Shown here in pieces: positions 1 to 44,145 of a stretch of DNA of 64,000 bases. The stretch covers positions 38,991 through 102,990 of the forward strand of contig CAKOQV010000001.1 in the NCBI GenBank assembly GCA_934101345.1, read 5' to 3'. Source of the stretch: an uncultured Bacilli bacterium (GTDB taxonomy: Bacteria; Bacillota_I; Bacilli_A; RF39; UBA660). Under the pieces are notes generated by a model. The model was not told the DNA's origin. It saw only the letters and a list, made by a program, of their open reading frames with translations, and did no database searches. Position numbers and translations under genes: made by a program. Numbering within the stretch: position 1 is the first letter of the stretch; each line of letters opens with the position of its first letter.

Positions 1-736
1 TAAAAAGGTTGCAAAAGCATTCAATTTAAATAAACCAATTTGTTATATAATTGATGGCATTGATTTAAAGAAACATAAAGTATATATCTTTGGTTATAAC
101 AATTGTGAAGTTATTATTAAAAATTGTAATTTTGGATTAGATTTATACGTTGATGTTAATGGTAAATGTACATTAGAGAATACAAATATAACAACATTCT
201 CTTATTTATCAATTGGCGCTAATGATTTAGTAATTAAAAATATGGATAGCGACAAAATAAGAATAATCAGTTCTGAATCAAATATCATTTTGGATGCAGA
301 TAATAGAATTGATGTAATAGACTCTAATATCGGTAGTCAAAAGAAAAATATTAATGTTTCATTTATAGCTACAAATGAATTAAATGTTGTTAATTCTAAT
401 ATTGTTGGCAAAGAAGTAGAATGTAAATCAAGTACTATTAATACTGATAAAAAAAGTTCATTAATTGCGACTGATAAAGTTAATCTACAAATAGATACTT
501 TTGATTCTATAAATATTAATGCTCCAACAATTGTTTTAAATGGAGAAGAAATATCAAATGAAAAGAAATCAGTTGTATTTAAAAAAATAACTGAACCACT
601 TGCACTTAAAAGATTAGAATTAGTAAATCTTTTGAAAAAAGTTAAAACTCAATGTGAAAACATTAATTCAGAGAAAGTTTTAGAATACCAAGAAGAACTA
701 AATGTTCAACCAGTTAGTAAAGTTTTAAAAAAATAA
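1..736 (+). CDS. Hypothetical beta-helix-like repeat protein, 3' portion; the 5' end lies upstream of the window
   Basis: Frame 2 is open from nt 2 to the stop at 734-736, and the track Met at 242 is internal. N/I/D-rich segments recur at about 20-aa spacing (…NIVGKEV…, …NSNIILDADN…), typical of right-handed beta-helix, adhesin or tail-fibre folds. A terminator follows directly. Confidence 0.45.
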   Translation, partial: KKVAKAFNLNKPICYIIDGIDLKKHKVYIFGYNNCEVIIKNCNFGLDLYVDVNGKCTLENTNITTFSYLSIGANDLVIKNMDSDKIRIISSESNIILDADNRIDVIDSNIGSQKKNINVSFIATNELNVVNSNIVGKEVECKSSTINTDKKSSLIATDKVNLQIDTFDSININAPTIVLNGEEISNEKKSVVFKKITEPLALKRLELVNLLKKVKTQCENINSEKVLEYQEELNVQPVSKVLKK

Positions 737-753
737 TAATATACAAAAGAAAA

Positions 754-778
754 AGACAATTGCGGATTGTCTTTTTGC
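754..778 (+). terminator. Rho-independent terminator
   Basis: Stem AGACAAT, loop tgcgg, stem ATTGTCT, then TTTTT, immediately after the stop at 736. Confidence 0.7.
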
Positions 779-977
779 TATTATATAAAATGATGGGTAC
801 CCCAGGCGAGATGAATGCTCACATATAAAATATGCTTACTGGCATTGCCAACACATCGTTAATCCTTCACAAGTATCCCATCTACATATATATTATAGCA
901 TATTTATGTAAAATATTCATCTTTTTTTTATTTTTTGAATTCTTCAATGTAAACTTGACTAATATATTCAATTGCTA

Positions 978-1238
978 AATCACTATATTTTTTAATATTA
1001 GTTTTAGAATACGGGAATAAATAACAATAGTCTTGATTTCTTTTAATACTTTTTCTTTATTGAAAATATTTGCAATAGTACTATATGAGTTACCTTCAAA
1101 ATATAAATTAAATATTCTTATAACTATATCTTTAGTTAATGGATCTGGTACTAATTTTTTATCAACTCTTTTATAACCTATAGGACAAACTGCAGGAATG
1201 TGTCTACCATAGACATAATGACACCAACTAAAAATACA
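978..1238 (-). pseudogene. Large serine recombinase fragment (recombinase-domain remnant); no start codon, bounded by stops
   Basis: Minus-strand frame translates to …GRHIPAVCPIGYKRVDKKLVPDPLTKDIVIRIFNLYFEGNSYSTIANIFNKEKV…. This matches the conserved PxGY…L.ide.eA.iVr.IF.ly..G.s…IA..LN motif of the Recombinase domain in large serine recombinases (SpoIVCA, TnpX, CcrB type). Only about 87 codons are open. Confidence 0.5.
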
Positions 1239-1437
1239 TTAGATTTAATACATTTCAAAGGAAAGATAAATAATATAGTTATTAACTTAAATTCAAAGAG
1301 TTATAACGATAATGATATTGGTTTTGATATATATGTATCTGTTTTAAAATAAGTTATTCTGTTTCGTTCTAAAAAATAGATATGTATGATAAATCAATAA
1401 AAAAATAAGTAATATTAAAATTTAAAAGATTAGCAGT

Positions 1438-1462
1438 AGAGATATGTTTTAAAGCATATCTT
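1438..1462. promoter_or_regulatory. Inverted repeat AGATATG-N8-CATATCT followed by a T run, upstream of the relaxase gene; candidate oriT or terminator
   Basis: Perfect 7-bp inverted repeat read directly from the sequence. MobV plasmids place oriT inverted repeats just upstream of mob. Its function is not shown by the sequence. Confidence 0.25.
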
Positions 1463-1496
1463 TTTCTATTGCTTAAATGAAAGGAGAAAATGATAT

Positions 1497-2757
1497 ATGA
1501 ATTTAAATTATGCAATATTTAGAAGTCAACAGATTATGACTTTAAATGATTTAGCACAAATCGGATCACACAATAAAAGAGAAAAACAGGCTTATAAATC
1601 TAATCCTGATATTAAATTAGAATTAAAAGATGATAACATTGAGTTAGTACCACTTGAATCTAAATATGTTAAAGGTTTTAAAGAATTAACTAAGGAATAT
1701 GAAAAAGAACACAATGAAAGACAAAAGACAAGAAAGAAAAAAGACTTATAGTCAAATGTTAAATAAATCAAAAAATGTTGTTGCAGATGAACTATTATTT
1801 ACTGCTACCCATAATTTTTTTGAGAATATGAATAAAGATGATATTATTGATTGGGCTAATACTTGTATGGAATTTGTTTATAAAGATTTAGGTTATACAA
1901 AATCACAAGTATTACACGCTACTATTCATTTAGATGAAGAAACACCACACTTGCATTGTGTAGTTATTCCACTAGTAAAAAAGTATGATAAAAGAACAAA
2001 TACAGAAAGATATACTATATCTAAAAAACAATATATAAGAGATAAATATCATTTATCAGAATTACAGGATAAATATCATAAAAGACTAACTGAAAAAGGA
2101 TATGATTTAGAACGTGGTATTAAAGGTAGTAATGCTAAACATCAAAAAACAAAAGAATTAAAGAAAACTACTAGATATTATGAAAACAAAGTTAAGGTAA
2201 TAAATACTAGAATAGATAATGCTATGAACGTTTTTGAAGAAAAGATGAAAACTACAAAAAATATACCTTTTAGCAAAACGCACGTATTAGTAGAAAAAGA
2301 TACTTTTGAAAGTATGAATAAAGTTATTAAAGAAAGTAAAAAAGCAATAGAGTTTCAACCTAAATTACAACAATTATTTAATGAAGTTGATAACTATACT
2401 AAAAGTCATCAAACTTTAGAAAAGGAAAACGAGGTACTAAATGCTAGAGTTAATAAACTTTCTAAAGATAACACTAAACTAAACACACGATTAGAAGCCA
2501 TTTTAAAGGTAATTAAAGAGTTTTTTAGGAATTTATTACAAATTGGTAATGAACTTGTAAAAGAAACTACTACAATTGAAATAAAAGACTATTATGATAG
2601 TAAAGAATTTAATTCAAATGATGTTTATGATATATCTAAAGGAACAACCAAAGAAGATGAATTATTTGATTATGCAGATATACCTGGTTATTACAAAACT
2701 AGAAAAAAATCATATTATCAGGAAAAAGATAAAGACGATTATGAAATAAGTCTATAA
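1497..2757 (+). pseudogene. mob: MobV-family (Mob_Pre) plasmid mobilization relaxase, split by a +/-1 frameshift in a poly-A run
   Basis: N-terminus MNLNYAIFRSQQIMTLNDLAQIGSHNKRE resembles MobM/Pre of pMV158/pUB110. The downstream frame carries the HxDExTPHxH signature (HLDEETPHLH). The two ORFs (1497-1751 and 1699-2757) overlap at the run gaaagaaaaaagac. A strong RBS aaaggagaaaatgatatATG precedes the first ORF. Confidence 0.75.
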
Positions 2758-2833
2758 AAAATGTAAAAATTTATAATTTTATTAAGAATATTCTCAAATC
2801 TGTGTTATAATTAAGTTAATGGAGGTGTTAGAA

Positions 2834-3544
2834 ATGGCTTTTAGTAATTTGAACGAGCAACGTGCAAAAGCAATGAAAGATTTAAGAGATTACATGGAAC
2901 TTAAATATGGTTATGGAAGTGCATATATGAGAGCTATCTCTAAATTAAGTGCAAATGATCAATATGATGAGAGAGGAATGTTAAAACCAGAATATACATT
3001 AACTTCTAAAGAAAGGGATGCTTTATTATTTTATGTTCCAGAAACTAGTAAATATTTAAAAGCATTTGATGATGTAAGATTTGAAACTACAAACAAAACA
3101 AAAAACGAACAAAATAAAGACCAAACATTAGATAAAAGATATCGTATGTTTTTAGAAAGCGTAAGAGAAGGAACAATGAAAATTGCGTCTAGTGCTGAAG
3201 TCCCTGAAGGAAATAGAGTTATTCCTTATGAAATAGTAGGAATTGAATTTGGTACTGATAGAATTATAGAAACATATGGAAGAGATGTCTTTGAAAGAGC
3301 ATTTAAAGAAATGTATGGGGAAAATAGTCTAAAAAAAGCCGAATATAATAAGGTATCACAAGATCTTTCCAAGACAGACAGAATGTTTGTGTACCTTATT
3401 CAAGAGGGGATTGCTACTTCACCTTTAATAGATTTACAAGTTTTACTTCATTTACTAGAAGAAAAAGGAATACCAACTTATATCGATTTTGAATCAAGAA
3501 CATTTTATTATAATGGTAGTCCTCAAAAAGGCAAAACTAAATAA
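2834..3544 (+). CDS. Hypothetical protein within the mobile-element remnant
   Basis: Long ORF. RBS GGAGGTG lies 6 nt before the ATG at 2834; the track start at 2819 overlaps this RBS. No recognisable motif. Confidence 0.5.
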   Translation: MAFSNLNEQRAKAMKDLRDYMELKYGYGSAYMRAISKLSANDQYDERGMLKPEYTLTSKERDALLFYVPETSKYLKAFDDVRFETTNKTKNEQNKDQTLDKRYRMFLESVREGTMKIASSAEVPEGNRVIPYEIVGIEFGTDRIIETYGRDVFERAFKEMYGENSLKKAEYNKVSQDLSKTDRMFVYLIQEGIATSPLIDLQVLLHLLEEKGIPTYIDFESRTFYYNGSPQKGKTK

Positions 3545-3561
3545 ATTAGTTTTGCCTTTTT
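3530..3561 (+). terminator. Rho-independent terminator
   Basis: Stem GGCAAAACTAA, loop ataaa, stem TTAGTTTTGCC, then TTTTT, spanning the stop codon. Confidence 0.7.
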
Positions 3562-3819
3562 ACTATAATTCCATTATAGTAACACACTACCAAGATGGAC
3601 AAGCCATCTAGGATAAAGTGTGCCAAAGGTGGTCCTTTGGAAACCAATTTAAGCATAGTCTTAGCAAGACATAAAGCCAAGTAAAATTAAGAAGTTTTAT
3701 AATATAAGTATACAACGAAAGATAAAAGTGTTATAATTTATATAAAGATACTAATTTAAAAAGAGATTATAATGTTTATAAATTTATATAAATTAAGATC
3801 TATTAAAAGGAGAAGAATT

Positions 3820-4350
3820 ATGGAAAAAAACAAAAAAATTTTATCAGGTATTTTTGCTATAATAATGGAAGAAAGTATGACTAGTGATGTATATGAAGAA
3901 AATGAAGTTACTAGATATCCACTCGATAGTGTTGAGCCTACGTTTGAAGAACCTGTTGTTCGTTATAAAACAGTTCAATCAAATATAGGAATAAATAATG
4001 ATTTGTTTGTTGTAACGTTTTATGAAAATTTGCCTGAAAATCAAAATCATTTAAGTTTTTCAGAAATAAGATTTGGCTGTTACCATAACAAATATGATAA
4101 TTCAAGAGAAGAATACAGTTTTAATGTAGCTATTAAAACTGATGAAAAAAGTGATCCAACTAATTACCTAAGTTTTTCTTTATCTTCAGATGATTATGAA
4201 AAAATAAAAAAAGTCAGTGAAAAATCAATAAAAAATCCGAATGAACAAATTTCTATTCGATCTTATCTTGATTTGTTAAATTCACTTAATATTGAACAAA
4301 TTAAAAATTTAAACGTTCTATATGGAACCAAGTCTAATTTAAAAAAATAG
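3820..4350 (+). CDS. Hypothetical protein
   Basis: ORF with RBS AAAGGAGAAG 5 nt before the ATG at 3820; the track start at 3772 is less likely. No motif recognised. Confidence 0.45.
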   Translation: MEKNKKILSGIFAIIMEESMTSDVYEENEVTRYPLDSVEPTFEEPVVRYKTVQSNIGINNDLFVVTFYENLPENQNHLSFSEIRFGCYHNKYDNSREEYSFNVAIKTDEKSDPTNYLSFSLSSDDYEKIKKVSEKSIKNPNEQISIRSYLDLLNSLNIEQIKNLNVLYGTKSNLKK

Positions 4351-4464
4351 ATTGTTTAATTATACATTAAGGTATTTTCATCTGAATATAAAAAAGTATA
4401 ATTACATATATTTTTATATCTAACTTTTTTAATCGTTTATATTTTTGCTAATTTTATTGAATAA

Positions 4465-4508
4465 GCAACATATTACAAACTAATTGTAAGTAATATTGTT
4501 GCCTTTTT
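4465..4508 (+). terminator. Rho-independent terminator
   Basis: Stem GCAACATATTAC, 13-nt loop, stem GTAATATTGTTGC (one bulge), then CTTTTT. Confidence 0.5.
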
Positions 4509-4626
4509 ATTTGTCTTACGACTTCATAAAAAGAAAAAAAGACTACCACTTTCATCAGCAAAGCTGACAAAACGTGATAGCTTTTTTTAGATAATCTAAT
4601 AACTAATCTAACGAAGAGTGAAAAGT

Positions 4627-5034
4627 TTATCTTCTTATTTTAGGTATTATATTTGCTACTCTTGTATTTGTTATATCAGTTAATACAATTATCAAAACTA
4701 ATACTATTGTTGATATTATATAGGCAATTAACATTGCTATATAATTTTGAGAAAACACACTTTCAAAAAATGTTACTATACATAAGATAATTGCAAATAT
4801 TCCAACAATAAGAAATATAGTGTCGCTATAATTATTTGCTAATCTTTTCTTTGGATCATTGTCGTTTTTCTCATTCCAAGTTCTACCTAAAATGCTCCAT
4901 TCTTTTGTAAATTTTGCATGTCCCCAACAAGTTAAACCTATAAAAAACCAACCAACAGATACAAGTTTATAGTTATCAACAATAGGTATTAATATAACCA
5001 TAATCGTAGAAAATCGTAGAACAAAGAAAACCAA
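4627..5034 (-). CDS. Small polytopic membrane protein, hypothetical; start uncertain (TTG at 5034 or ATG at 5001)
   Basis: ORF encodes about four hydrophobic helices. It lies 12 nt downstream of the 5046-5537 gene on the same strand. No convincing RBS. Confidence 0.4.
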   Translation of the reverse strand: MVFFVLRFSTIMVILIPIVDNYKLVSVGWFFIGLTCWGHAKFTKEWSILGRTWNEKNDNDPKKRLANNYSDTIFLIVGIFAIILCIVTFFESVFSQNYIAMLIAYIISTIVLVLIIVLTDITNTRVANIIPKIRR

Positions 5035-5045
5035 ATATTTGAATT

Positions 5046-5537
5046 TTATTTAAAAACATTTTTATTTTTTCTAGCATTTTTTTTCGCCTCCTCGAATCTA
5101 TTTTCATCTAAAATATCTATTATTTGTTTATTAGTTTCATTTTGATAAGCCAAATCTTGTATCGTATCAATTAATATGTCTTTTTTATCTTGTTCCATAT
5201 CTTCATTATTTCTAATTTGATTATTTAATGTTTCAATGATAACTTCATTATTCTTGATACTTGATGTTGCCATAACCCAAGCATCTTCTAATTCAGATAA
5301 TTTTATCTTATTAGATAAATTCTCAATGAATATTTCGTTAGAAAAATTAAATATTAGAAATGTTTTATCTTTAATAATAATTCTATTGGGTTCAATATAA
5401 GTTAAGTTAGTTTTATCTATTTTTCTAATATTACCATTTATAATAGTAGGTGCTACCTTAGAAAACTCACATATTAGTTCTAACTCCCTTTTTAACGATT
5501 CTTCAATAGGTAATTCTTCTTTAATAATATTTACCAT
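5046..5537 (-). CDS. Hypothetical protein
   Basis: ORF with RBS AAAGGATGG just before the ATG. No motif recognised. Confidence 0.5.
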   Translation of the reverse strand: MVNIIKEELPIEESLKRELELICEFSKVAPTIINGNIRKIDKTNLTYIEPNRIIIKDKTFLIFNFSNEIFIENLSNKIKLSELEDAWVMATSSIKNNEVIIETLNNQIRNNEDMEQDKKDILIDTIQDLAYQNETNKQIIDILDENRFEEAKKNARKNKNVFK

Positions 5538-5598
5538 AATACCATCCTTTCTTTCTAGGATAGTTTCTTAAACATAAAAAAACTAATCCATTTCTGAA

Positions 5599-6302
5599 TT
5601 AGTTATTTATTAAAGCTCGAAAAGTTCGAGCAGATTTCCTTATGGTACCACCAACCTTAATGATAGTATTTCTTATTGCTTGCCCTACCATATGATGAGT
5701 ATTACAAGCGTTTTTTTCTCTAGTAATATTATTGTTTTTAATTACTTCATCTGTTTGAGTAATTCTAAATAAATTTGCTGCTAATTCATTGCTACCCATA
5801 TGATCTAGTATTTCTTCTTTATCAGGGTCAATGCCTTTTCTTTTTGCAATGTCTTTTGCTGTTTCTCCACCATATAGTCCTTTATAACCATAGTCATTAA
5901 ACTTTGCATAATTATTTACACCTGCTTTTTTTGCAGTATCAAATAAGTTTGACCCAACGCGACAGATTTATGTCTTGCTGGGCTTGCATTTTGTACTATC
6001 AAATAACAAGCGTATCTACTTAATTTATAATCTATTACTTCTTTAGTAGCACCATTGGGCATTTCGATTGTTTTCCCCTTAACGGGAAAATGTTCTTCTA
6101 TATTAAAACCACTCAAATTACAGCTTATTTTTGCTTTGTTTATTACTTTAGCAAAGTGTTCCCATTTTGAATATTCTAAAGCACTCTTTAATTCTCTTGC
6201 TTCCCAATATTCATTTCCTAATTCATCAATATGTTTAATTTCTTCAAATGTTTTATCTTTATATTCTTCTAATTCATTCTTCTCTTTAACTACTGTATCC
6301 AT
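5599..6302 (-). pseudogene. dinD: DNA-damage-inducible protein D (DinD) homolog, interrupted by a frameshift in a 7-nt homopolymer
   Basis: The 5916-6302 ORF matches the DinD N-terminus (FEEIKH…GNEYWEARELKSALEYSKWEHFAKVINKAK…YKLSRYACYLIVQNASP…GQTY). The 5599-5799 region plus the intervening frame matches the DinD C-terminus (…YGYKGLYGGETAKDI…ILDHMGSNELAANLFRITQT…). The frames switch at ctgctttttttgcag (about 5925-5935). Confidence 0.7.
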
Positions 6303-6573
6303 TTCAGGCTTTCTTTCTATATTTTAAAAATACCTGTAGTTCTAGTCTATTTTTGTTTTTTAACATTAATAAATATTCACAAATTACGTTCTATTAAAAT
6401 GCACTTCAATCAATATTATATACAATATTTTACCAAAGTCAATTATTTTGCTTAAATAATAGTCTGTTTTATTTTGCTAAATTATTAACTTTTGATTATT
6501 AACTTATGGCATTATACACAAGAGAGTAAAGAGTATTTATTTTGGTGATTGCAATCTTTGCACTATATATTTA

Positions 6574-6650
6574 TGGCTTATATATGATAGACATTATTTT
6601 TAGACTACAGGCTAAAAATAACACTCTAAGACCATAGACTTAGAGTGAAC
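6574..6650. repeat. Intergenic structured repeat element, copy A: 17-mer TGGCTTATATATGATAG plus two hairpins
   Basis: 17-mer at 6574-6590. SL1 is TTTTTAG / actacagg / CTAAAAA (6597-6618). SL2 is CACTCTAAG / accataga / CTTAGAGTG (6622-6647). Copies B, C and D share it. Confidence 0.7.
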
Positions 6651-6681
6651 ATAAAAAAATAGAGTATATAAATTATACTCT
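6650..6681 (-). terminator. rpsD rho-independent terminator
   Basis: Hairpin AGAGTATA / taaat / TATACTCT (6661-6681) spans the rpsD stop. On the minus strand it is followed by ATTTTTTTAT (plus 6650-6660). Confidence 0.6.
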
Positions 6682-7278
6682 ACTATAGAATTCTACAATT
6701 AGTGATTCATTGATTTCAGCGTTTAATTCGCTTCTTTCAGGATATCTAACATATGTAGCAGTTCTTTTTGCTTCATCATAATTAATAAAGTCAACTCTTT
6801 TAATTTTATTGGCTAATGCTATTTCAATTCCTTTGTGATCAGCAGAATTTTCTTTTATAGCAATAACATCTCCTGGTTTAACTCTGTAAGATGGAATATC
6901 AACTTTCTTACCATTTACAGTGATATGACCATGGTTAACTAATTGTCTTGCTCCTCTTCTAGTAGTAGCAAATCCAGCTCTATAAACTAGGTTATCTAAT
7001 CTACTTTCTAGTAAGATAAGTAAGTTTTCACCATGAACACCTTTCATTTTTGCAGAGTCATTTACTAATTTTTTGAATTGTTTTTCAGAAATACCATACA
7101 TAAATCTAACTTTTTGTTTTTCATTTAATTGAATAGCATAGTTAGAAGGTTTTCTTTTTCTGTCTTTACCATGTTGTCCTGGACCATAAGGTCTCTTCGC
7201 AATATCTTTACCATTTTCAAGTATTGAGAATGATACTCTTCTTGCTTTTTTGTTATTTGGGCCTGTATATCTAGCCAT
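6673..7278 (-). CDS. rpsD: 30S ribosomal protein S4
   Basis: MARYTGPNNKKARR…GARQLVNHGHITVNGKKVDIPSYRVKPGDVI… is the canonical S4 sequence. RBS GGAGGAAAG lies upstream. Confidence 0.95.
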   Translation of the reverse strand: MARYTGPNNKKARRVSFSILENGKDIAKRPYGPGQHGKDRKRKPSNYAIQLNEKQKVRFMYGISEKQFKKLVNDSAKMKGVHGENLLILLESRLDNLVYRAGFATTRRGARQLVNHGHITVNGKKVDIPSYRVKPGDVIAIKENSADHKGIEIALANKIKRVDFINYDEAKRTATYVRYPERSELNAEINESLIVEFYSRV

Positions 7279-7651
7279 TTTTCTTTCCTCCTTCTCTTAG
7301 AAGGCATACTATATTTTAATAGGGTGTCTTTAGCATACTTTCGCTATGCAGCCTTAGTTACTTATAAATGACACATTACTAAAATAGATAGTATCCGCTG
7401 CTAAGCAATAATATTATATAATTAATGATATGGTAAGTCAAGGAAAACTTGCTTGTTTTATTAATAAAATTATATTAAAAAGTGTAAAAAAAGTGTAAAG
7501 CGGTTAAAAATTGTCGAAATGTGTGTTATACTTGATATGATGATGATAGAAAGGGAGAGCTATCATTAAATTAGGAGGTGTTTGTTAAGAGGGGGAATTT
7601 CATTATGATGTTGCAAAATAATTATATATAATAAAATAAGAAAGGATGAAT

Positions 7652-9859
7652 ATGATGAAAAAGAAATTAATGAAAATGACTAAGATATTTTTAGATTTAA
7701 CTTTAATTTTTTCACAATTATCATCAGTTACTAAAGTATTCGCAGATGAGATAACTAGTAATGATACTGAAATTAAAGATGAAACTAAAGAACTAGTGGT
7801 TAATGGATATTTAATGAATACATTTGATAATTCTATAATAGATGAGACTGAAAATGATGGTGTATTTGAATATAATGTTACCGCTGGTAAATATAGACAG
7901 ATATTAACTATATCTGGCGATAAAATAGATGATACTAAGAGTTATAGTGTCAAAGTAAATGATAATGATAGTGTTGTTATGACTGGCGAGAAACTTAAGA
8001 ATGCTACTATAGAGGGTAGTGAGATAGACTTAACTAATTCATATAATACTATTATAGAATATACTGATAAGATTGTTATTACTGAGGTTAGTGAAGAGAC
8101 TGAAACCGAAGCTTTAACTTTAGAATATAAGGCTAAAATTACTTATGAAGTAGAAGGCAATAGCTTTGATGAGGCTTTAAATGGTCTTTACGAGGAATAT
8201 GTATTTGAAAATGGTAACTTTATAGTTAATGCTAAGGAATTGCCTTTATTACCTACTGTTCCTACTATGGAATACTTATATAGTTTATTAAATGAAAATA
8301 ATGGTATTAAACTTGAAGTATTTGATAAAGATAATAATCTTGTTACATTAGAAGAAGAAACACCTGTAGAAGGAGAAATTTCTAACAATGAAGAAACACC
8401 TGTAGAAGGAGATATTTCCGGTGAGGATACTCCAGTTAGTGAAACTCTTATTAAGAATGGATATACTTTAAAATTTACTAAAGGTTTAAGTGAAGCAATT
8501 TATAAAGTATATGTAATGGGAGATATTACTGATGATAGTATTTTTAGTGCTGATGATATGATGCCTACAATGGAAGGATACCTTAATGGTGAAATGATTC
8601 CTACAATGGACTTATATCTTACTAGTCATGAGACTGAAGGAAAAGATGAATATGAGGAAGATCCATTTGGAACTATTACTATTGAAGATATTATGACTAT
8701 TAATGGATATTTAAATCATTCTGAAAAAGAAAGAGAAAATACTGATTTAAATCTAGTATTTGGTAGTGATACTGATGAATTATATGTTGGCGATACTTTC
8801 AAAGTTAGTCTAGTTGTTAATTCTACAGATTTAGAAGACTATATCAATGGTATTGATGGTTTAGTTACTTATAGTGATAATCTTAAACTAATGAATGTAC
8901 TATTTAATGAGAATTTAATTGGTACTTATAATGAAGATGGTAGATTTGTAGGAGCAGGTACTGAGCTTACAAATGGTACTACTGTTATAACATTTGAATT
9001 TATGGCTATTAATGATGGTGAAGGTACAGTTACTTTAAATGGTAGTGTTGCTAATGATATGATTATTAATGAATTTGAAGAAGTTAGTGTTAGCGTTAAT
9101 ATTACTAGAAAGAGTTCAATTAATAATTTACATTCATTAAATGCTAGTGTTGGTACATTTGATACTGTATTTGATAAAGATGTTACTGTATATACTTTAA
9201 CTGTTCCATATGATACTAAAGAAGTTATATTATCTGGTTCTTTAGAGGATACTTTATCAACAGTAGATGGTTTATTTAAATATGAACTTACTGAAGATAA
9301 GACTACTGCAATTATAACTGTAACTGCTGAAGATGGTAGTACTAAGGTTTATACTGTATATATAATAAAAGAAAAACCGCCAGTAGTTCCTACACCAGTA
9401 GTATACTATTATTCTTCAAATAATTATTTAAAAACACTTGAGGCTAAGGGTTATGAAATTAAATTTGATAGAGATATTTTAGAGTATGAACTAAATGTTA
9501 ATAATGATGTTAAATCTTTAGATATTACTGCTATTGCAGAAGACTCTAGATCTAGAGTGGAAATTACTGGTAATGAAAACTTTAAAACTGGTAAAAACAC
9601 TGTTATTATTTCTGTTAAAGCAGAAAATGGTGATGTTAGAGAGTACAAGTTAATTGTAAATAGAAAGAGCATTACTACTACTACTTTAACTGAAGAAGAA
9701 GAATCTGGTAGCACTGCTGAAAAAGTTGTTATTATAATACTTATAGTACTTGTAGTATTAGGACTTCTATATCTTATCTTTAAAAAAGATGATGATGCTA
9801 CTCCTACTGTTAAACCAGAAAATAAGAAAAATAATACAAAAAATAATAGTAAGAAATAA
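7652..9859 (+). CDS. Large cell-surface protein with a signal peptide, a cohesin-like segment, two cadherin-like beta-sandwich repeats and a C-terminal TM anchor
   Basis: N-terminal signal MMKKKLMKMTKIFLDLTLIFSQLSSVTKVFA. Two segments (about aa 490-580 and 600-680) share the …Y.LTV….K.v.i….ed…V.i…..TA.ITVTAEDGST..Y.V.I… pattern of cadherin-like domains common in Clostridia. A cohesin-like region is DTFKVSLVVNSTDLEDYINGIDGLVTYSDN. The C-terminus has a hydrophobic helix plus a K-rich tail. A tandem 12-aa repeat EETPVEGEIS occurs near 8340-8440. Start is placed at the ATG at 7652 after AAAGGA. Confidence 0.6.
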   Translation: MMKKKLMKMTKIFLDLTLIFSQLSSVTKVFADEITSNDTEIKDETKELVVNGYLMNTFDNSIIDETENDGVFEYNVTAGKYRQILTISGDKIDDTKSYSVKVNDNDSVVMTGEKLKNATIEGSEIDLTNSYNTIIEYTDKIVITEVSEETETEALTLEYKAKITYEVEGNSFDEALNGLYEEYVFENGNFIVNAKELPLLPTVPTMEYLYSLLNENNGIKLEVFDKDNNLVTLEEETPVEGEISNNEETPVEGDISGEDTPVSETLIKNGYTLKFTKGLSEAIYKVYVMGDITDDSIFSADDMMPTMEGYLNGEMIPTMDLYLTSHETEGKDEYEEDPFGTITIEDIMTINGYLNHSEKERENTDLNLVFGSDTDELYVGDTFKVSLVVNSTDLEDYINGIDGLVTYSDNLKLMNVLFNENLIGTYNEDGRFVGAGTELTNGTTVITFEFMAINDGEGTVTLNGSVANDMIINEFEEVSVSVNITRKSSINNLHSLNASVGTFDTVFDKDVTVYTLTVPYDTKEVILSGSLEDTLSTVDGLFKYELTEDKTTAIITVTAEDGSTKVYTVYIIKEKPPVVPTPVVYYYSSNNYLKTLEAKGYEIKFDRDILEYELNVNNDVKSLDITAIAEDSRSRVEITGNENFKTGKNTVIISVKAENGDVREYKLIVNRKSITTTTLTEEEESGSTAEKVVIIILIVLVVLGLLYLIFKKDDDATPTVKPENKKNNTKNNSKK

Positions 9860-9938: not shown

Positions 9939-10277
9939 ATGAATAGAAAGGGTCAAGCTTTAGTAGAATTTGTTCTTGTATTACCAGTATTTATATTGAT
10001 ATTGTTTGCTATTGTTGATTTTGGTACTATTTTAAGTAAAAAAAATGAACTAGAAAATGATAGTATGGATATTGTTTCACTTGTTAAGAATGGTACTACT
10101 ATAGAGGATATTAATAAGAAATATACTGATTTAGATATAACTATGAAAGAGGATAATCAATATACTAATATAACTATTACTGAGAATGTTAAAGTTATAA
10201 CTCCAGGACTTAATTTGATACTTGGTAATCCATATAAGATTACTGTAGAAAGGATAATACCTAATGCTAACACTTAA
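9939..10277 (+). CDS. tadE: TadE-like pseudopilin (Flp-pilus assembly)
   Basis: N-terminus MNRKGQALVEFVLVLPVFILILFAIVDFG shows the TadE-like G/QALVEF prepilin-type leader followed by a hydrophobic segment. RBS GGGAGAG 7 nt upstream. A TATAAT box at 9906-9911. Confidence 0.7.
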   Translation: MNRKGQALVEFVLVLPVFILILFAIVDFGTILSKKNELENDSMDIVSLVKNGTTIEDINKKYTDLDITMKEDNQYTNITITENVKVITPGLNLILGNPYKITVERIIPNANT

Positions 10278-10653
10278 TAATAAGGGTCAAAGTTTAGTCC
10301 TATTTGTAGTTATTATGCCAATTATATTACTTATGTTTGTACTTGTATATGATATTGGTAATGCTATGTATGAAAAGAATAAACTTTCTAATGTTAGTTA
10401 TATGGTAATAGACTATGCTCTTGATAATATTGATAAAGTAGATGAGAATGATTTAATTGATTTGATAGATAAGAATACTAATAATCTTAGTAGTATGTCT
10501 GTACTTATAGATAATGGTAAGGTTAATGTAACTCTTACTAAAACTATAAAAGGAACTTTCGGTAAAGTATTTAATTTTGATTTAATTGAGGCTAAAAGTG
10601 AATATACTGGTTATATGGATAATGGTAATAAAAGAATAGAGAAGGTAGGTTGA
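10264..10653 (+). CDS. TadE/TadG-like pseudopilin
   Basis: N-terminus MLTLNNKGQSLVLFVVIMPIILLMFVLVYDIG matches the TadE-like domain pattern. Its start overlaps the previous gene, suggesting translational coupling. Confidence 0.6.
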   Translation: MLTLNNKGQSLVLFVVIMPIILLMFVLVYDIGNAMYEKNKLSNVSYMVIDYALDNIDKVDENDLIDLIDKNTNNLSSMSVLIDNGKVNVTLTKTIKGTFGKVFNFDLIEAKSEYTGYMDNGNKRIEKVG

Positions 10654-15279: not shown

Positions 15280-15292
15280 TTTATTTATTATT

Positions 15293-15365
15293 AACACTCT
15301 AAGTCTATGTCTTAGAGTGTTATTTTGAGCCTTAGGTCTCAAAATAATATATCTACTTATTTATT
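15293..15365. repeat. Intergenic structured repeat element, copy B-R (reverse orientation)
   Basis: 15295-15344 is the near-exact reverse complement of 6597-6647, i.e. copy A SL1 and SL2. Its SL1 equivalent is TTTTGAG / ccttaggt / CTCAAAA at 15323-15344, a compensatory variant. The 17-mer end is degenerate. Confidence 0.65.
15295..15326 (+). terminator. yebC terminator; also the SL2 hairpin of repeat copy B-R
   Basis: CACTCTAAG / tctatgt / CTTAGAGTG, then TTATTTTG. Confidence 0.6.
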
Positions 15366-15391
15366 ATATATAAAATGTTTGTATATATTAC

Positions 15392-15474
15392 TGGCTTATA
15401 TATGATAGATGTATTTTAAGACTATAGAGGCTTAAAATAACACAATTAGACTTGAGATAAGGCTAATTGTGAAT
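15392..15474. repeat. Intergenic structured repeat element, copy B-F
   Basis: 17-mer TGGCTTATATATGATAG at 15392-15408. SL1 is TTTTAAG / actatagagg / CTTAAAA. SL2 is CACAATTAG / acttgagataagg / CTAATTGTG. The stems differ from copy A but the pairing is preserved. Confidence 0.7.
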
Positions 15475-15567
15475 AAAATAAAGTGTAGATAATTTTATTA
15501 AAATTATTGATAATAAAACTAAAATATGGTAATATAATAGTAGGTTAATAGATAGAGGTGATAAGAA

Positions 15568-16161
15568 ATGAAATTTAGTAAAATGATTTTTGTTTTGACA
15601 ATTGCCGCTAGTGCTATATTTGTTTTTATGATTGGTAGTTCTTATGCTTATTATACAGCTACGTCTACTGATATTAATGTTACTACTGGTAATACTTCTG
15701 ATGGTGTTTCAGTAATATTTACTGATAATAATTATGTTAATATTACTACAGGTGTACCTATCGATGACAATATGGTTGATAATTATGTTGATGGTAATAA
15801 ATTTTCAATTATTCCTAATGTTAATACTTTAAATGGATATGATGCTTTTATTACTATAGCTTTAATTAATGTTAATATAGATGATAGTTTGAAAATAAAT
15901 TCTTTTAAATATAAACTTATTTGTATTGATGATAATTCTGATGTTGTTAAAAGTACTACTGGTAATGGAACATCACTTGTTAGTGGTACTGATGTAGTTT
16001 TAAGTAAATTTAACACTACTGATAATTCATTCGATATTAATACTAATTATCAATGTACTTTTAAAGTATGGATATCTAATAGTGGAAATAATCAAAATGA
16101 GCTTATGAACAAGAAATTTTCTGCACTATTAAAAGTAAATTCTATAATGAGAAAGCAGTGA
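15568..16161 (+). CDS. TasA/camelysin-like secreted protein with a SipW-cognate-type signal peptide
   Basis: Hydrophobic N-terminus ends in …IGSSYAYYTATSTD, which resembles the …GGGT(W/F)A(A/F)F(N/S)D cleavage-region motif of TasA/CalY. About 190 aa, T/N-rich beta-type composition. RBS GAGGTGA upstream. Confidence 0.5.
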   Translation: MKFSKMIFVLTIAASAIFVFMIGSSYAYYTATSTDINVTTGNTSDGVSVIFTDNNYVNITTGVPIDDNMVDNYVDGNKFSIIPNVNTLNGYDAFITIALINVNIDDSLKINSFKYKLICIDDNSDVVKSTTGNGTSLVSGTDVVLSKFNTTDNSFDINTNYQCTFKVWISNSGNNQNELMNKKFSALLKVNSIMRKQ

Positions 16162-16166
16162 TATTT

Positions 16167-16715
16167 ATGAAAAAAAAGAAGATAATATTATCTATAGCTT
16201 TTGTTTTGTTACTTGTTATAATTGTTTTTGGATGTACTTATGCTTTTTTTGTTAATCGTACTGGTGAAAGAAGTATTACTAATACTTCTGGCAAAACAGA
16301 TATTGTTTATAGTATAACTGAAAATATTACAGGTGTTCATCTTACACCTTCTGATGCCGCTAGTGGAGGACTTAATTCAGTAGCAGTTGCAAGACTTAAT
16401 ACTAATAGCGTACCAACTGCATTTAATATTTATATTACTCCTACTAGTATTGATGGTCTTAATGTTGCTGCTTTAAAGTGGGAAGTTATTGGTACTAATA
16501 ATGATGAAGTTGTATATTCTAATAATGGAGATTTTTCTACTGCTAGTAATGATACTCCAATTACTATTGTAAATAAATATGAACTTAAAAGTACAGATAC
16601 TACATTTAATATTTATATATGGCTTGATGCTAGTTTAATTGATACATCGCTTGATAATAGTAGGTTTGCTGCTAAAATAAGTGCTGATACCGTTCAAATT
16701 ACTGGTAATTATTAA
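16167..16715 (+). CDS. TasA/camelysin-like secreted protein with a SipW-cognate-type signal peptide (paralog of the previous gene)
   Basis: N-terminus MKKKKIILSIAFVLLLVIIVFGCTYAFFVNRTGE. The start is ATG at 16167; the track GTG at 16158 overlaps the upstream stop. Confidence 0.5.
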   Translation: MKKKKIILSIAFVLLLVIIVFGCTYAFFVNRTGERSITNTSGKTDIVYSITENITGVHLTPSDAASGGLNSVAVARLNTNSVPTAFNIYITPTSIDGLNVAALKWEVIGTNNDEVVYSNNGDFSTASNDTPITIVNKYELKSTDTTFNIYIWLDASLIDTSLDNSRFAAKISADTVQITGNY

Positions 16716-26892: not shown

Positions 26893-26927
26893 CTTGCTTA
26901 TATATAAATTATTTGAATATATGGATA

Positions 26928-27015
26928 TGGCTTATATATGATAGGTATGTAGATACATTGTTATTAGACCTAAAGGCTAATAACAGCACTTTAATACCTT
27001 GGAATTAAAGCGAAC
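26928..27015. repeat. Intergenic structured repeat element, copy C
   Basis: 17-mer TGGCTTATATATGATAG at 26928-26944. SL1 is TTATTAG / acctaaagg / CTAATAA. SL2 is GCACTTTAAT / accttgg / ATTAAAGCG. The stems are again compensatory relative to A and B. Confidence 0.65.
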
Positions 27016-27029
27016 ATAATAATTAAAAT

Positions 27030-27060
27030 AAGAACTGATATTAACTTATCAGTTCTTATT
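27030..27060 (+). terminator. Hairpin AAGAACTGATA / ttaac / TATCAGTTCTT; weak terminator for sstT
   Basis: Perfect 11-bp stem, but the following tract (ATTGAC) is only weakly T-rich. Confidence 0.35.
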
Positions 27061-44066: not shown

Positions 44067-44087
44067 ATAACCAAAAAAAGAATTCAA

Positions 44088-44145
44088 TTTAGAGACTATT
44101 ATTAATAGGCTCTAAATTGCTAGTGAAGACTTTAGGCTTCACTAG
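44088..44145. repeat. Divergent copy D of the two-hairpin intergenic element; the 17-mer is absent
   Basis: SL1 is TTTAGAG / actattattaatagg / CTCTAAA. SL2 is CTAGTGAAG / actttagg / CTTCACTAG. The loops again start ACT and end AGG as in copies A-C, with the same SL1, 3-5 nt, SL2, A-rich layout. Confidence 0.5.

Follow-up and report, generated by a model that had tools for sequence, protein, structure and literature searches.

A lineage-specific family of strand-specific tandem-hairpin elements in reduced-genome gut Bacilli

Five copies of the element in the window and their architecture

The window (the whole 64-kb stretch of DNA analysed here) has a G+C content of about 26%, and its GC skew is positive along the entire length (0.3-0.4). 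Between its genes we found a repeated element built of tandem hairpins. Copy A lies beside rpsD, copy B-R follows yebC and adjoins copy B-F, copy C is located between the SDF symporter gene and radC, and copy D precedes the iPGM gene (Table 1). A first-pass annotation of the same DNA had reported five copies, and our covariance-model scan returned exactly these five at the same positions, i.e., roughly one copy per 13 kb.

The covariance model (R1) was seeded with 12 copies, 11 from other genomes together with copy C, and the whole window was scanned with filters off. Apart from the five copies and their reverse-strand echoes, the best match in the window scored 14.6 bits (E ~1). Copies A, B-F and C contain the only three exact occurrences in the window of a 17-mer, TGGCTTATATATGATAG, for which we estimate a chance expectation of about 1e-4 (128 kb, 26% GC). 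The proposed hairpins fold in every copy, with z values of -3.1 to -5.6 relative to dinucleotide shuffles. When the whole window was scanned for perfect stems capped by GAC...G(G/A)C, nine of the ten element hairpins were recovered and none was found outside the five elements. The missed hairpin, P2 of copy C, has the cap UAC...GAA, and relaxed cap variants added two unrelated matches. Thus, the capped hairpins occur only within elements and are never single in the window.

Table 1. Positions and parts of the element copies and associated features in the 64-kb window
Feature	Position	Strand	Parts	Evidence and orthologues
Copy A	6563-6655	+	box-like CTATATAT 6563-6570; 17-mer 6574-6590; P0 deleted; P1 6594-6621; P2 6622-6647; A-rich tail 6648-6655	R1 96.3 bits, fold, cap scan; orthologues L005, L026, L053
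Copy B-R	15287-15391	-	box 15378-15391; degenerate 17-mer CATTTTATATATAATAA 15361-15377; degenerate P0 15349-15360; P1 15320-15347; P2 15295-15319	R1 77.4 bits, fold, cap scan; orthologues L068, L199, L228, L282
Copy B-F	15378-15479	+	box 15381-15388; 17-mer 15392-15408; P0 deleted; P1 15412-15439; P2 15441-15471; tail ends 15479	R1 63.2 bits, 17-mer match, cap scan
Solo partial 5' module GCTTATATATAA	26896-26907	+	no hairpins
Copy C (most complete)	26914-27020	+	box 26917-26924; 17-mer 26928-26944; intact P0 26945-26956 (GTAT-GTAG-ATAC); P1 26959-26985; P2 26987-27012; tail 27013-27020	R1 109.4 bits, 17-mer match, cap scan
Ordinary stem-loop terminator after copy C	27027-27060
Copy D	44085-44145	+	core only (no box, 17-mer or P0): P1 44085-44119; P2 44120-44145	R1 40.6 bits

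The 3' end of copy A is 18 nt from the stop of the convergent rpsD gene (6673-7278, minus strand). Copy B-R, a reverse-oriented paralogue of copy A as the first-pass annotation had recognised, is located 8-13 nt past the yebC stop, and its box has in common with that of B-F the near-palindromic GTATATATTAC. The solo partial module directly follows the stop of the SDF symporter gene, 34 nt upstream of the copy C 17-mer. The terminator after copy C, which would end any + strand transcript containing this copy, immediately precedes the radC promoter TTGACT-17-TATAAT. Copy D lies between the terminator of the upstream gene and the iPGM promoter TTGAAA-17-TATAAT. The earlier statement that every copy sits between a terminator and a promoter therefore holds for copies A and D and fails for copy C, where the terminator is downstream of the element.

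In its full form, the unit is composed, on the + strand from 5' to 3', of a box, the 17-mer, an optional hairpin P0, hairpin P1, a linker, hairpin P2 and an A-rich tail. P1 and P2 correspond to the two hairpins originally described, and the unit proved to be larger by P0, the box and the tail. The 8-nt box GTATATAG, GTATATA(G/T), occupies positions -11 to -4 relative to the 17-mer, leaving a 3-nt gap. The 17-mer has the consensus TnGCTTATATATRATAG, also written TnGCTTATATAT(G/A)ATAG, and TTATATATAA, at its centre, forms a perfect palindrome when the variable position is A. P0 is a 4-bp hairpin between the 17-mer and P1 that is often deleted across the family; examples of its stem are ATAT/ATAT, GTAT/ATAC, ATAC/GTAT, ATGC/GCAT and GCAC/GTGC. 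P1 has 10-11 bp and is separated by a linker of 0-3 nt from P2, which has 9-10 bp, usually has the form CACU.../...AGUG, and is followed by the tail AACAUAAUAA. The middle of P2 is Watson-Crick paired in some copies and forms a block of tandem G•A / A•A pairs in others. The second stem of copy C had been presented as fully paired; it contains one A•C pair (CAC.../...GCG), at which the orthologues have A-U.

P1 and P2 have a common tip, 5'-A-G-A-C-(loop)-G-G-C-U-3', in which the pairs A-U and G-C are followed by an A•G mismatch and then by the closing pair C-G. In P1 the mismatch has A in 50/50 copies and G in 47/50, and in P2 it has A in 49/50 and G or A in 49/50. The pairs beside the mismatch covary, C-G being replaced by U-A (AGAU...AGCU) and G-C by U-A (AUAC...GGAU). 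Above the closing pair there is either a tetraloop, mostly YNNA, or an extra stem of up to 6 bp (e.g., CUUAAC-UU-GUUAAG). What is conserved is thus a 1x1 internal loop, A•G, between fixed neighbours and not a loop sequence: the AC...AGG consensus noticed earlier belongs to the G-C, A•G and C-G positions under a variable loop and not to the loop itself.

Structure conservation and relatives outside the window

Covariation was analysed in 50 distinct copies from genomes and 69 distinct copies among the metagenome matches listed. In these alignments, which were fitted to the model and are therefore biased toward the structure, standard pairs filled 95.9% of the stem cells in the genome set and 96.8% in the metagenome set. 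In the column-shuffle control the paired cells made up 78.3% and 69.5%, and with the 3' partners slid by 1-3 columns they made up 29-43% and 30-52%, respectively. Changes on both sides were revealed for 23 of the 25 pairs in each set, and double-change cells numbered 180 against 38 expected (genomes) and 398 against 112 expected (metagenomes). RNAalifold, run on a plain MAFFT alignment that had not been fitted to the model, predicted P0, P1 and P2. Moreover, P1 of copy B-R shows a compensatory change from A-U to C-G among its orthologues, which are about 96% identical (L068, L199, L228, L282). The structure is real and maintained, in agreement with the covarying stems and conserved tips that had been read from the five window copies.

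The number of wobble pairs is low, about 1% of cells. In both sets pooled, G•U was found 28 times and A•C 12 times in about 2,700 cells, and the first set alone (G•U 7, A•C 5) carries no strand information. The pooled excess is only suggestive of folding of the + strand, since a strong strand mutation bias could produce it. The mismatches at paired columns are mostly purine-purine (GA 31, AG 23, AA 18, GG 9), and pyrimidine-pyrimidine mismatches hardly occur (UU 3). Taken with the invariant A•G, the spectrum shows that the + strand, as given here, is the structured one; on the opposite strand the same positions would form destabilising C•U or U•U contacts.

A scan for the exact 17-mer in one genome per species gave 69 loci. 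About half of them are chance matches inside genes of unrelated organisms, and the remaining ones cluster in a few small-genome gut Bacilli: Clostridium sp. CAG:302 (8 matches), the 'uncultured Bacilli' MAGs CAKOLH01 (11) and CAKOMD01 (7) and the 'uncultured Tenericutes' UMGS1185 (8), with single matches in CP091726.1 (1.46 Mb), CAAGQX01 and CAYYXX01. In all copies from the small-genome gut Bacilli the 17-mer is followed by the same hairpin architecture, so that the search of related genomes suggested by the first-pass annotation did yield further copies. The window and CAG:302 are 97-98% identical around copy A. Applied to the genome loci, R1 gave 52 true copies, some with an altered or missing 17-mer. 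Metagenomes were scanned with the core pattern AGACTNNNGGCT...AAGACNNNNGRCTT, ignoring the 17-mer; the matches listed were mostly AT-rich human-gut contigs, and R1 gave at least 94 matches on metagenome contigs, at least 69 of them distinct. In total, at least about 110 distinct copies were collected from gut MAGs related to Clostridium sp. CAG:302 and from gut metagenomes. Repeats of the AAGACTTTTGGCTTAG type in the contigs L194, L212, L219, L258, L277 and L279, which have poor ORFs and a different repeat organisation, are probably unrelated.

The 17-mer is absent from many relatives, as in copy D, and many of them carry two or three tandem hairpins. Hence, the core of the element is the hairpin tandem, and the 5' module, of which the 17-mer is a part, is optional. 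The functional unit comprises two, sometimes three, hairpins in tandem, and their stems need only pair. Most copies are syntenic across 4-6 species, and no near-identical paralogues were found within one genome, save where the flanking gene was duplicated too.

The family was not matched in the databases that we searched. Rfam 15 at the gathering threshold gave no match over the whole window or loci L195, L209 and L198, as the first-pass annotation had proposed to check. With a permissive E-value, copy A gave chance matches only (18 bits at best, the gathering score being 42). The 17-mer was found neither in the full-text literature nor in about half of the files of gut structured-RNA catalogue supplements. 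In viral contigs a relaxed 15-mer gave only chance matches (R1 returned one marginal score, 30 bits, among the 80 loci listed), and the core double-hairpin pattern gave one unrelated GC-rich match. A short-stem array pattern recovered only collagen-like coding repeats. Several known motifs were compared by eye and rejected because their positions or spacing did not fit or because they were absent from many copies: a sigma-54 promoter, a hammerhead core, a box C/D-like K-turn, CIRCE, PyrR and CsrA sites, and a conserved mini-ORF ATG GCT TAT ATA TGA.

Genomic position, transcription signals and variable DNA

The elements always adjoin the 3' end of a gene, in either orientation. In the co-oriented class (23 copies) the distance between the upstream stop codon and the 5' edge is -3 to about 40 nt, and in the convergent class (about 20 copies) the P2 end and the stop codon of the convergent gene are 3-25 nt apart; by independent orthologous loci the two classes stand at roughly 14 to 12. 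Before the co-oriented copies there is no room for a terminator, and the + strand must therefore be transcribed there as the 3' end of the upstream mRNA. The downstream genes have their own sigma-70 promoters past the element. No recurrent neighbour gene was revealed: clustering of the neighbour proteins gave 226 groups that are unrelated to one another, and no transposase recurs among them. With respect to the local GC skew, the orientations are distributed 34:13 by copy and about 13 to 6-10 by independent locus, and in copies directed against the skew the 5' module tends to be decayed with TATAAT kept.

It had been proposed that the unit may be transcribed from its own promoter, with a -10-like hexamer in the 17-mer and plausible -35 elements in copies B and C. 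The conserved block does start abruptly at the box, where homology between genomes resumes exactly. The sole good -10 hexamer is the TATRAT of the 17-mer, and TATGAT/TATAAT is kept in copies that have lost TGGC, which argues that TATRAT matters. The other signals weaken the proposal. A -35 element was flagged for copy C only, and no conserved one was found at any spacing in about 70 copies. A start about 7 nt past TATRAT would fall inside the P0 loop, so that P0 would be unable to form in such an RNA, though P0 covaries. A recognisable terminator within 70 nt downstream was detected for 17 of 64 copies of the 17-mer type (~27%). The element is therefore probably not a classical stand-alone sRNA gene.

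On the + strand of the 17-mer type, P1 is followed by UAACAC and P2 by AACAUAAU, which is A-rich, and there is no U-tract. Read in reverse, P2 of copy A followed by UUAUUUUU scores as an intrinsic terminator. On the yebC strand, the reverse complement of the B-R P2 followed by TTATTTTG resembles a terminator by eye, and B-R plausibly terminates yebC, as had been suggested. Many relatives lacking the 17-mer have a U-run after P1 on the + strand (e.g., L209, L198, L213). It should be mentioned that ordinary terminators without the tip adjoin copies A, C and D.

The first-pass annotation had asked whether the copies flank strain-variable regions, and in close genomes they do. Between genomes that are 93-98% identical, every large difference in the 8-kb loci falls at an element border. 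In L029 a 2.27-kb insert with an LRR surface-protein gene lies between the symporter stop and the copy C box, the corresponding junction in the window being the solo module. Similarly, a non-coding stretch of about 450 nt adjoins the 5' side of the box in L032 and L063 and is absent from L009; L019 has a 1.1-kb insert 18 nt 5' of the element, carrying a DUF3800 gene and a DUF3800-VIII RNA; and L041 has a 574-nt insert close to another copy. L023 and L011 differ by 1.3 kb right after the A-rich tail, and the L011 element is partly deleted. Copy B-F (15374-15473) is absent from five related genomes/contigs, which have about 34 nt there instead. The breakpoint is inside the B-R 17-mer, in its near-palindromic core, and the genes 3' of B-F (15474-16714) have 79% identity, the flanks 95-97%. 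A further break in homology to CAG:302 is located at 6404, on the 5' side of copy A and 170 nt away from it. Neither target duplications nor a second element were found at these junctions, and some of the differences are clearly deletions. We therefore regard the junctions as hot spots of recombination or indels bordering a constrained unit and not as evidence of transposition. An integron-like insertion of cassettes was rejected, as the L029 insert lacks a second element; likewise, two deletions at A-rich direct repeats explain the L011/L023 difference better than a cassette.

Known systems, plasmid L239 and possible roles of the element

The first-pass annotation had contrasted the element with simple REP-like repeats. 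This was too strong: the distribution is REP-like, though the defining REP/RAYT features were not found. As in the REP/BIME elements of Proteobacteria (with RAYT), there are short imperfect palindromes with a conserved asymmetry located at gene 3' ends in both orientations, they often form pairs or clusters and are associated with rearrangement junctions, and roles both as terminators or stabilisers and as DNA sites for a protein are possible. By definition, a GTAG or CGTC tetranucleotide directly flanks the REP palindrome, and the survey that gives this definition (PMC3733652) reported no REP families for Firmicutes. A REP/RAYT system also has one Y1 transposase gene (RAYT) per genome, as a rule with REPs on its flanks, and many nearly identical REP copies. 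In contrast, the stems of the element are flanked by AUUA, UAA or AACAUAAU, with no GTAG/CGTC, and GTAG occurs only as one P0 loop variant. No RAYT was found among 20 window ORFs scanned with Pfam, there is no recurrent neighbour family, the copy number is about 100-fold lower (7-11 exact 17-mers per genome), and the stems of paralogues all differ. Furthermore, the hairpins of the element are in direct tandem and those of REP alternate, and the element has an extra 31-nt 5' module.

A repeated tip motif on otherwise free stems, at several paralogous loci per genome, is also known from the CsrB/RsmZ-type and ANTAR RNAs, the ANTAR substrate having in addition a similar geometry of two adjacent hairpins. 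The ANTAR substrate, reportedly described by Ramesh et al. in 2012, is said to comprise two hairpins with hexaloops carrying A1/G4, the second overlapping a terminator. Here the loops have 3-13 nt above a C-G closing pair, and no terminator overlaps P2. Unlike the CsrA/RsmA-binding sRNAs, the tip is GAC...GGC without GGA, and its 3' side is G-G-C-U with C in 49/50. More generally, an overlap of terminator and antiterminator, a regular terminator and a linked regulator gene are lacking.

The BOX/RUP repeats of Streptococcus pneumoniae are likewise modular Firmicute intergenic repeats with a variable number of hairpin modules and proposed effects on neighbour genes. The BOX modules are conserved in sequence and present in more than 100 copies, whereas our element conserves only the tip and the 5' module and has few, syntenic copies. 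An integron attC site is a single long imperfect hairpin with R''/L''-L'/R' boxes (RYYYAAC...GTTRRRY) and extrahelical bases, and attC sites are set in cassette arrays close to intI; our element differs in having two separate hairpins without GTTRRRY/RYYYAAC ends and in being dispersed beside housekeeping genes (rpsD, yebC, radC, iPGM). In the PATEs of the IS200/IS605 type, two like-oriented subterminal hairpins with a conserved irregularity go together with a conserved target of 4-5 nt at the left junction, clean insertion without duplication, and a TnpA (Y1) in the genome. Our element has two like-oriented hairpins with a conserved irregularity; the single gain that we observed (B-F) is not a clean insertion. 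The element is a new family within a known kind, the repeated structured intergenic elements, and it is distinguished by the A•G tip on all hairpins, the strict tandem and the presence of the motif in a rolling-circle plasmid.

This plasmid, L239, is circular and about 1.56 kb long; its assembly runs around the circle about 1.7 times and contains one ORF twice. Among its products are a rolling-circle Rep of the HUH type (Pfam REP_ORF2-G2P, E 9e-17), which has 34% identity to Rep proteins of Firmicute plasmids and the motifs FLTLTF, HYHLIVF and YLTKY, and a protein of 67 aa. Six short hairpins, xGAGAC-YNNA-GGCUCx, with the exact tip and covarying stems, are all located on the rep-sense strand, which would be the displaced strand. 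Their array lies between the 67-aa gene and a hairpin with a CTTGAT loop, about 100 nt upstream of the latter, which is the putative nick site and double-strand origin. Single-strand origins (sso) are usually located upstream of the double-strand origin. The position of the L239 array is thus the one expected for an sso and is the main reason to keep a function at the DNA level in play. Strand-specific tandem hairpins in non-coding DNA are common to the element, sso and the minus-strand origins of filamentous phages. The known sso types (ssoA, ssoT, ssoU, ssoW) occur on plasmids and contain different motifs, e.g., RSB and CS-6 TAGCGT, and we know of no sso with dispersed, syntenic chromosomal copies. 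L239 is a single example; the viral and plasmid searches gave no other, and PLSDB contained no BLAST match to copy A or to the non-coding region of L239. It is conceivable, if rather improbable, that the tip is a single-stranded-DNA recognition signal common to the chromosome of reduced-genome gut Bacilli and their rolling-circle plasmids. In this reading, host machinery would use the tandem hairpins, as DNA, for priming or restarting the synthesis of the complementary strand, or they would be the substrate of an HUH enzyme; dozens of chromosomal sites would be maintained and would double as preferred junctions for accessory gene gain and loss.

The elements, structured and strand-specific, form a family that is specific to a lineage of gut Bacilli with reduced genomes related to CAG:302, and either RNA or single-stranded DNA may be their acting form. 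Our best reading, offered tentatively and at less than even chances, is a transcribed, protein-binding RNA element. The + strand would be transcribed from the 5' module with its TATRAT or as the 3' UTR of the upstream gene, and the RNA would be a platform that binds a protein, probably a dimer or multimer, through the repeated tips; binding might titrate the protein, or it might mark and stabilise transcript ends. We infer that a protein recognises the surface of the tip and binds two or three such tips simultaneously. This reading is favoured by the covariation, the RNAalifold helices, the compensatory change in the B-R P1 and the purine-purine mismatches on the + strand, by the position of about half of the loci directly after a co-oriented stop, and by the block that begins at the box and the retained TATRAT. 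A near-invariant tip under a distal stem of variable length would also resemble protein-binding RNA hairpins. It is disfavoured by the promoter and terminator data (no conserved -35, the clash of P0 with the start, terminators at ~27% of copies, A-rich sequence after P2), by the many members without the 5' module and the copies, about half of the total, that run opposite to the adjacent gene, and by the scarcity of G•U, whose excess mutation bias could explain, as well as by the L239 hairpins beside a putative nick site.

The main rival, which we consider somewhat less probable still, is a single-stranded-DNA hairpin signal similar to REP, sso or primosome-assembly sites. The + strand hairpins would form on the lagging-strand template or on a displaced plasmid strand, the asymmetric tip would be read by an HUH/Y1 enzyme, a primosome or RNA polymerase acting as primase, and the chromosomal copies would be a vertically inherited population of sites. 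Such a signal needs neither promoter nor terminator, which fits the missing -35 and the few terminators, and it agrees with both orientations relative to genes, the indel and recombination junctions with one breakpoint in the 17-mer core, the very scarce wobble pairing and the six tip hairpins near the putative origin of the L239 replicon. HUH enzymes typically read DNA hairpins whose stem is perfect except for a conserved asymmetric mismatch (IS608, REP/RAYT), and the conserved tip mismatch matches this style. However, the bias of orientation with the skew by locus is much weaker than in elements of the IS200/IS605 type, no HUH/Y1 gene was found among the 20 window ORFs scanned with Pfam, and the plasmid example is a single one. 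The fully different stems and the synteny across species are unlike actively spreading REPINs, and the GTAG/CGTC tag is absent beside the stems. The location of every copy at a gene 3' end, the terminator-like P2 read in reverse (copy A, and B-R after yebC) and the U-run after P1 in many 17-mer-less relatives would all be expected of auxiliary terminators or 3'-end stabilisers, REP-like at the mRNA level, whose tip was merely inherited from a common ancestor. We find this doubtful to a high degree, as half of the copies face the way in which 17-mer-type hairpins have no U-tract. A destabilising mismatch adjacent to the loop has remained invariant while the stems turned over, for which descent alone is insufficient; in addition, the tip hairpins are never single, ordinary tipless terminators adjoin three copies, and the 31-nt module is left unexplained. 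About equally improbable is a non-autonomous mobile element (MITE-, PATE- or BOX-like) made of a 5' module and n hairpin modules and mobilised by a transposase in trans, with apparent covariation arising because only still-pairing copies get copied. Its modular architecture with an optional 5' module and two or three hairpins, the presence or absence of B-F in close genomes, the solo module, the partly deleted L011 copy, the inverted pairs and a double hairpin beside the end of a transposase-like ORF in L226 (a 47%-GC contig) point that way. Against this, neither target-site duplications nor clean empty sites were revealed, the B-F junction being a complex replacement and the L011/L023 difference resembling deletions. 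The lack of near-identical paralogues apart from flanking-gene duplicates, the synteny of most copies in 4-6 species, the low density and the unrelated neighbour clusters without a recurrent transposase are also contrary to mobility.

The hosts of the element are uncultured bacteria with genomes of about 1.4-1.5 Mb that are common in human guts and whose regulation is almost unstudied. Conserved across species, it is one of the most constrained non-coding features of these hosts. The elements mark the turnover of accessory genes (an LRR surface protein, a DUF3800 gene, divergent alleles of secreted proteins) and can thus serve as landmarks of strain variation. The repeated invariant tip implies a dedicated binding partner, and finding this partner would reveal either a new RNA-protein circuit or a new kind of DNA-hairpin recognition that links chromosome and plasmid biology.

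Probable sequence replacement and breaks in homology around window copies

In five related genomes or contigs, the orthologues of the two ORFs located 3' of copy B-F are just ~79% identical to them, whereas the flanks share 95–97%. Neither ORF has a Pfam match, and the first of them carries an N-terminal hydrophobic segment. The region 15474–16714 looks like a replaced allele with the element as its boundary. The box common to B-R and B-F, which form an inverted pair, is near-palindromic (GTATATATTAC, 15378–15391). The core of the 17-mer, in the variant that has A at the G/A position (TTATATATAA), is a perfect 10-bp palindrome, and therefore the inverted copies are identical in sequence where the B-R/B-F breakpoint falls.

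To the left of copy A, homology to Clostridium sp. CAG:302 and several metagenome contigs ends at position 6404. This left part of the window (1–6403) contains a Bro-N domain gene as well as several ORFs without a Pfam match (3772–4350, 4627–5034 and 5046–5537), and probably represents an island that is mobile or of prophage origin. At copy A itself, the rpsD stop codon is located in the loop of the rpsD terminator hairpin. On the minus strand, this hairpin is followed by the reverse complement of copy A hairpin P2, so that two terminator-like hairpins stand in series.

Elsewhere in the window, two TadE-like pilin genes belonging to a Tad/Flp pilus cluster (9939–10653) were observed, with a gene for a 737-aa cadherin-like-domain protein (7646–9859) upstream of them.

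Features of the element copies and their surroundings in the window and in related loci
Feature	Locus	Position	Strand	Remarks
Bro-N domain gene	Window	5916–6302	minus	
rpsD terminator hairpin	Window	6660–6682		TAGAGTATA-TAAAT-TATACTCTA
Two ORFs 3' of B-F	Window	15568–16161; 16158–16715		
1.1-kb insert beside an element	L019	6672–7770		No counterpart in L024
DUF3800-VIII RNA (RF03075) in this insert	L019	6771–6838		55.6 bits
DUF3800-like gene in this insert	L019	6838–7800	minus	
2.27-kb insert between symporter gene and copy C	L029	1285–3559		Missing from window
~450 nt of non-coding DNA immediately 5' of an element	L032; L063	7401–7847; 4318–4767		Absent in L009
Six hairpins with tip identical to that of the window element	L239	~1130–1300	minus	
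Perfect double hairpin with the element tip	L226	1773–1826		AAAAACAAAGACUACAGGCUUUGUUUUU + CCGCGAAAGACUACAGGCUUUCGCGG

Inserts and other extra DNA adjoining elements in related loci

Inserts or extra non-coding DNA beside elements were seen in several related loci (Table). The insert next to copy C (L029) is composed of a terminator, a promoter and a gene whose 713-aa product, judged from its sequence, is a surface protein carrying leucine-rich repeats of the BspA/DUF285 kind. The non-coding DNA of L032 and L063 includes GC-richer, possibly structured stretches (…GGAGCAACCCCCTGAGGTGCCCCG…), and gave no Rfam match at the gathering threshold.

The hairpin tip in a rolling-circle replicon and in a 47%-GC contig

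The same tip was found in L239 (JGI24708J26588_10025251), a circular rolling-circle replicon of ~1.56 kb whose contig represents ~1.7 assembled rounds. It codes for an HUH Rep (REP_ORF2-G2P) and a 67-aa ORF and contains long G-runs. A further hairpin, with CTTGAT in its loop, looks like a double-strand origin.

In the gut contig L226, an ORF with a C-terminus that appears, by eye, to be IS30/rve-type transposase-like is followed after ~85 nt by a double hairpin. Since this double hairpin has the same tip and L226 has a GC content of 47%, the element motif may range beyond the AT-rich clade.
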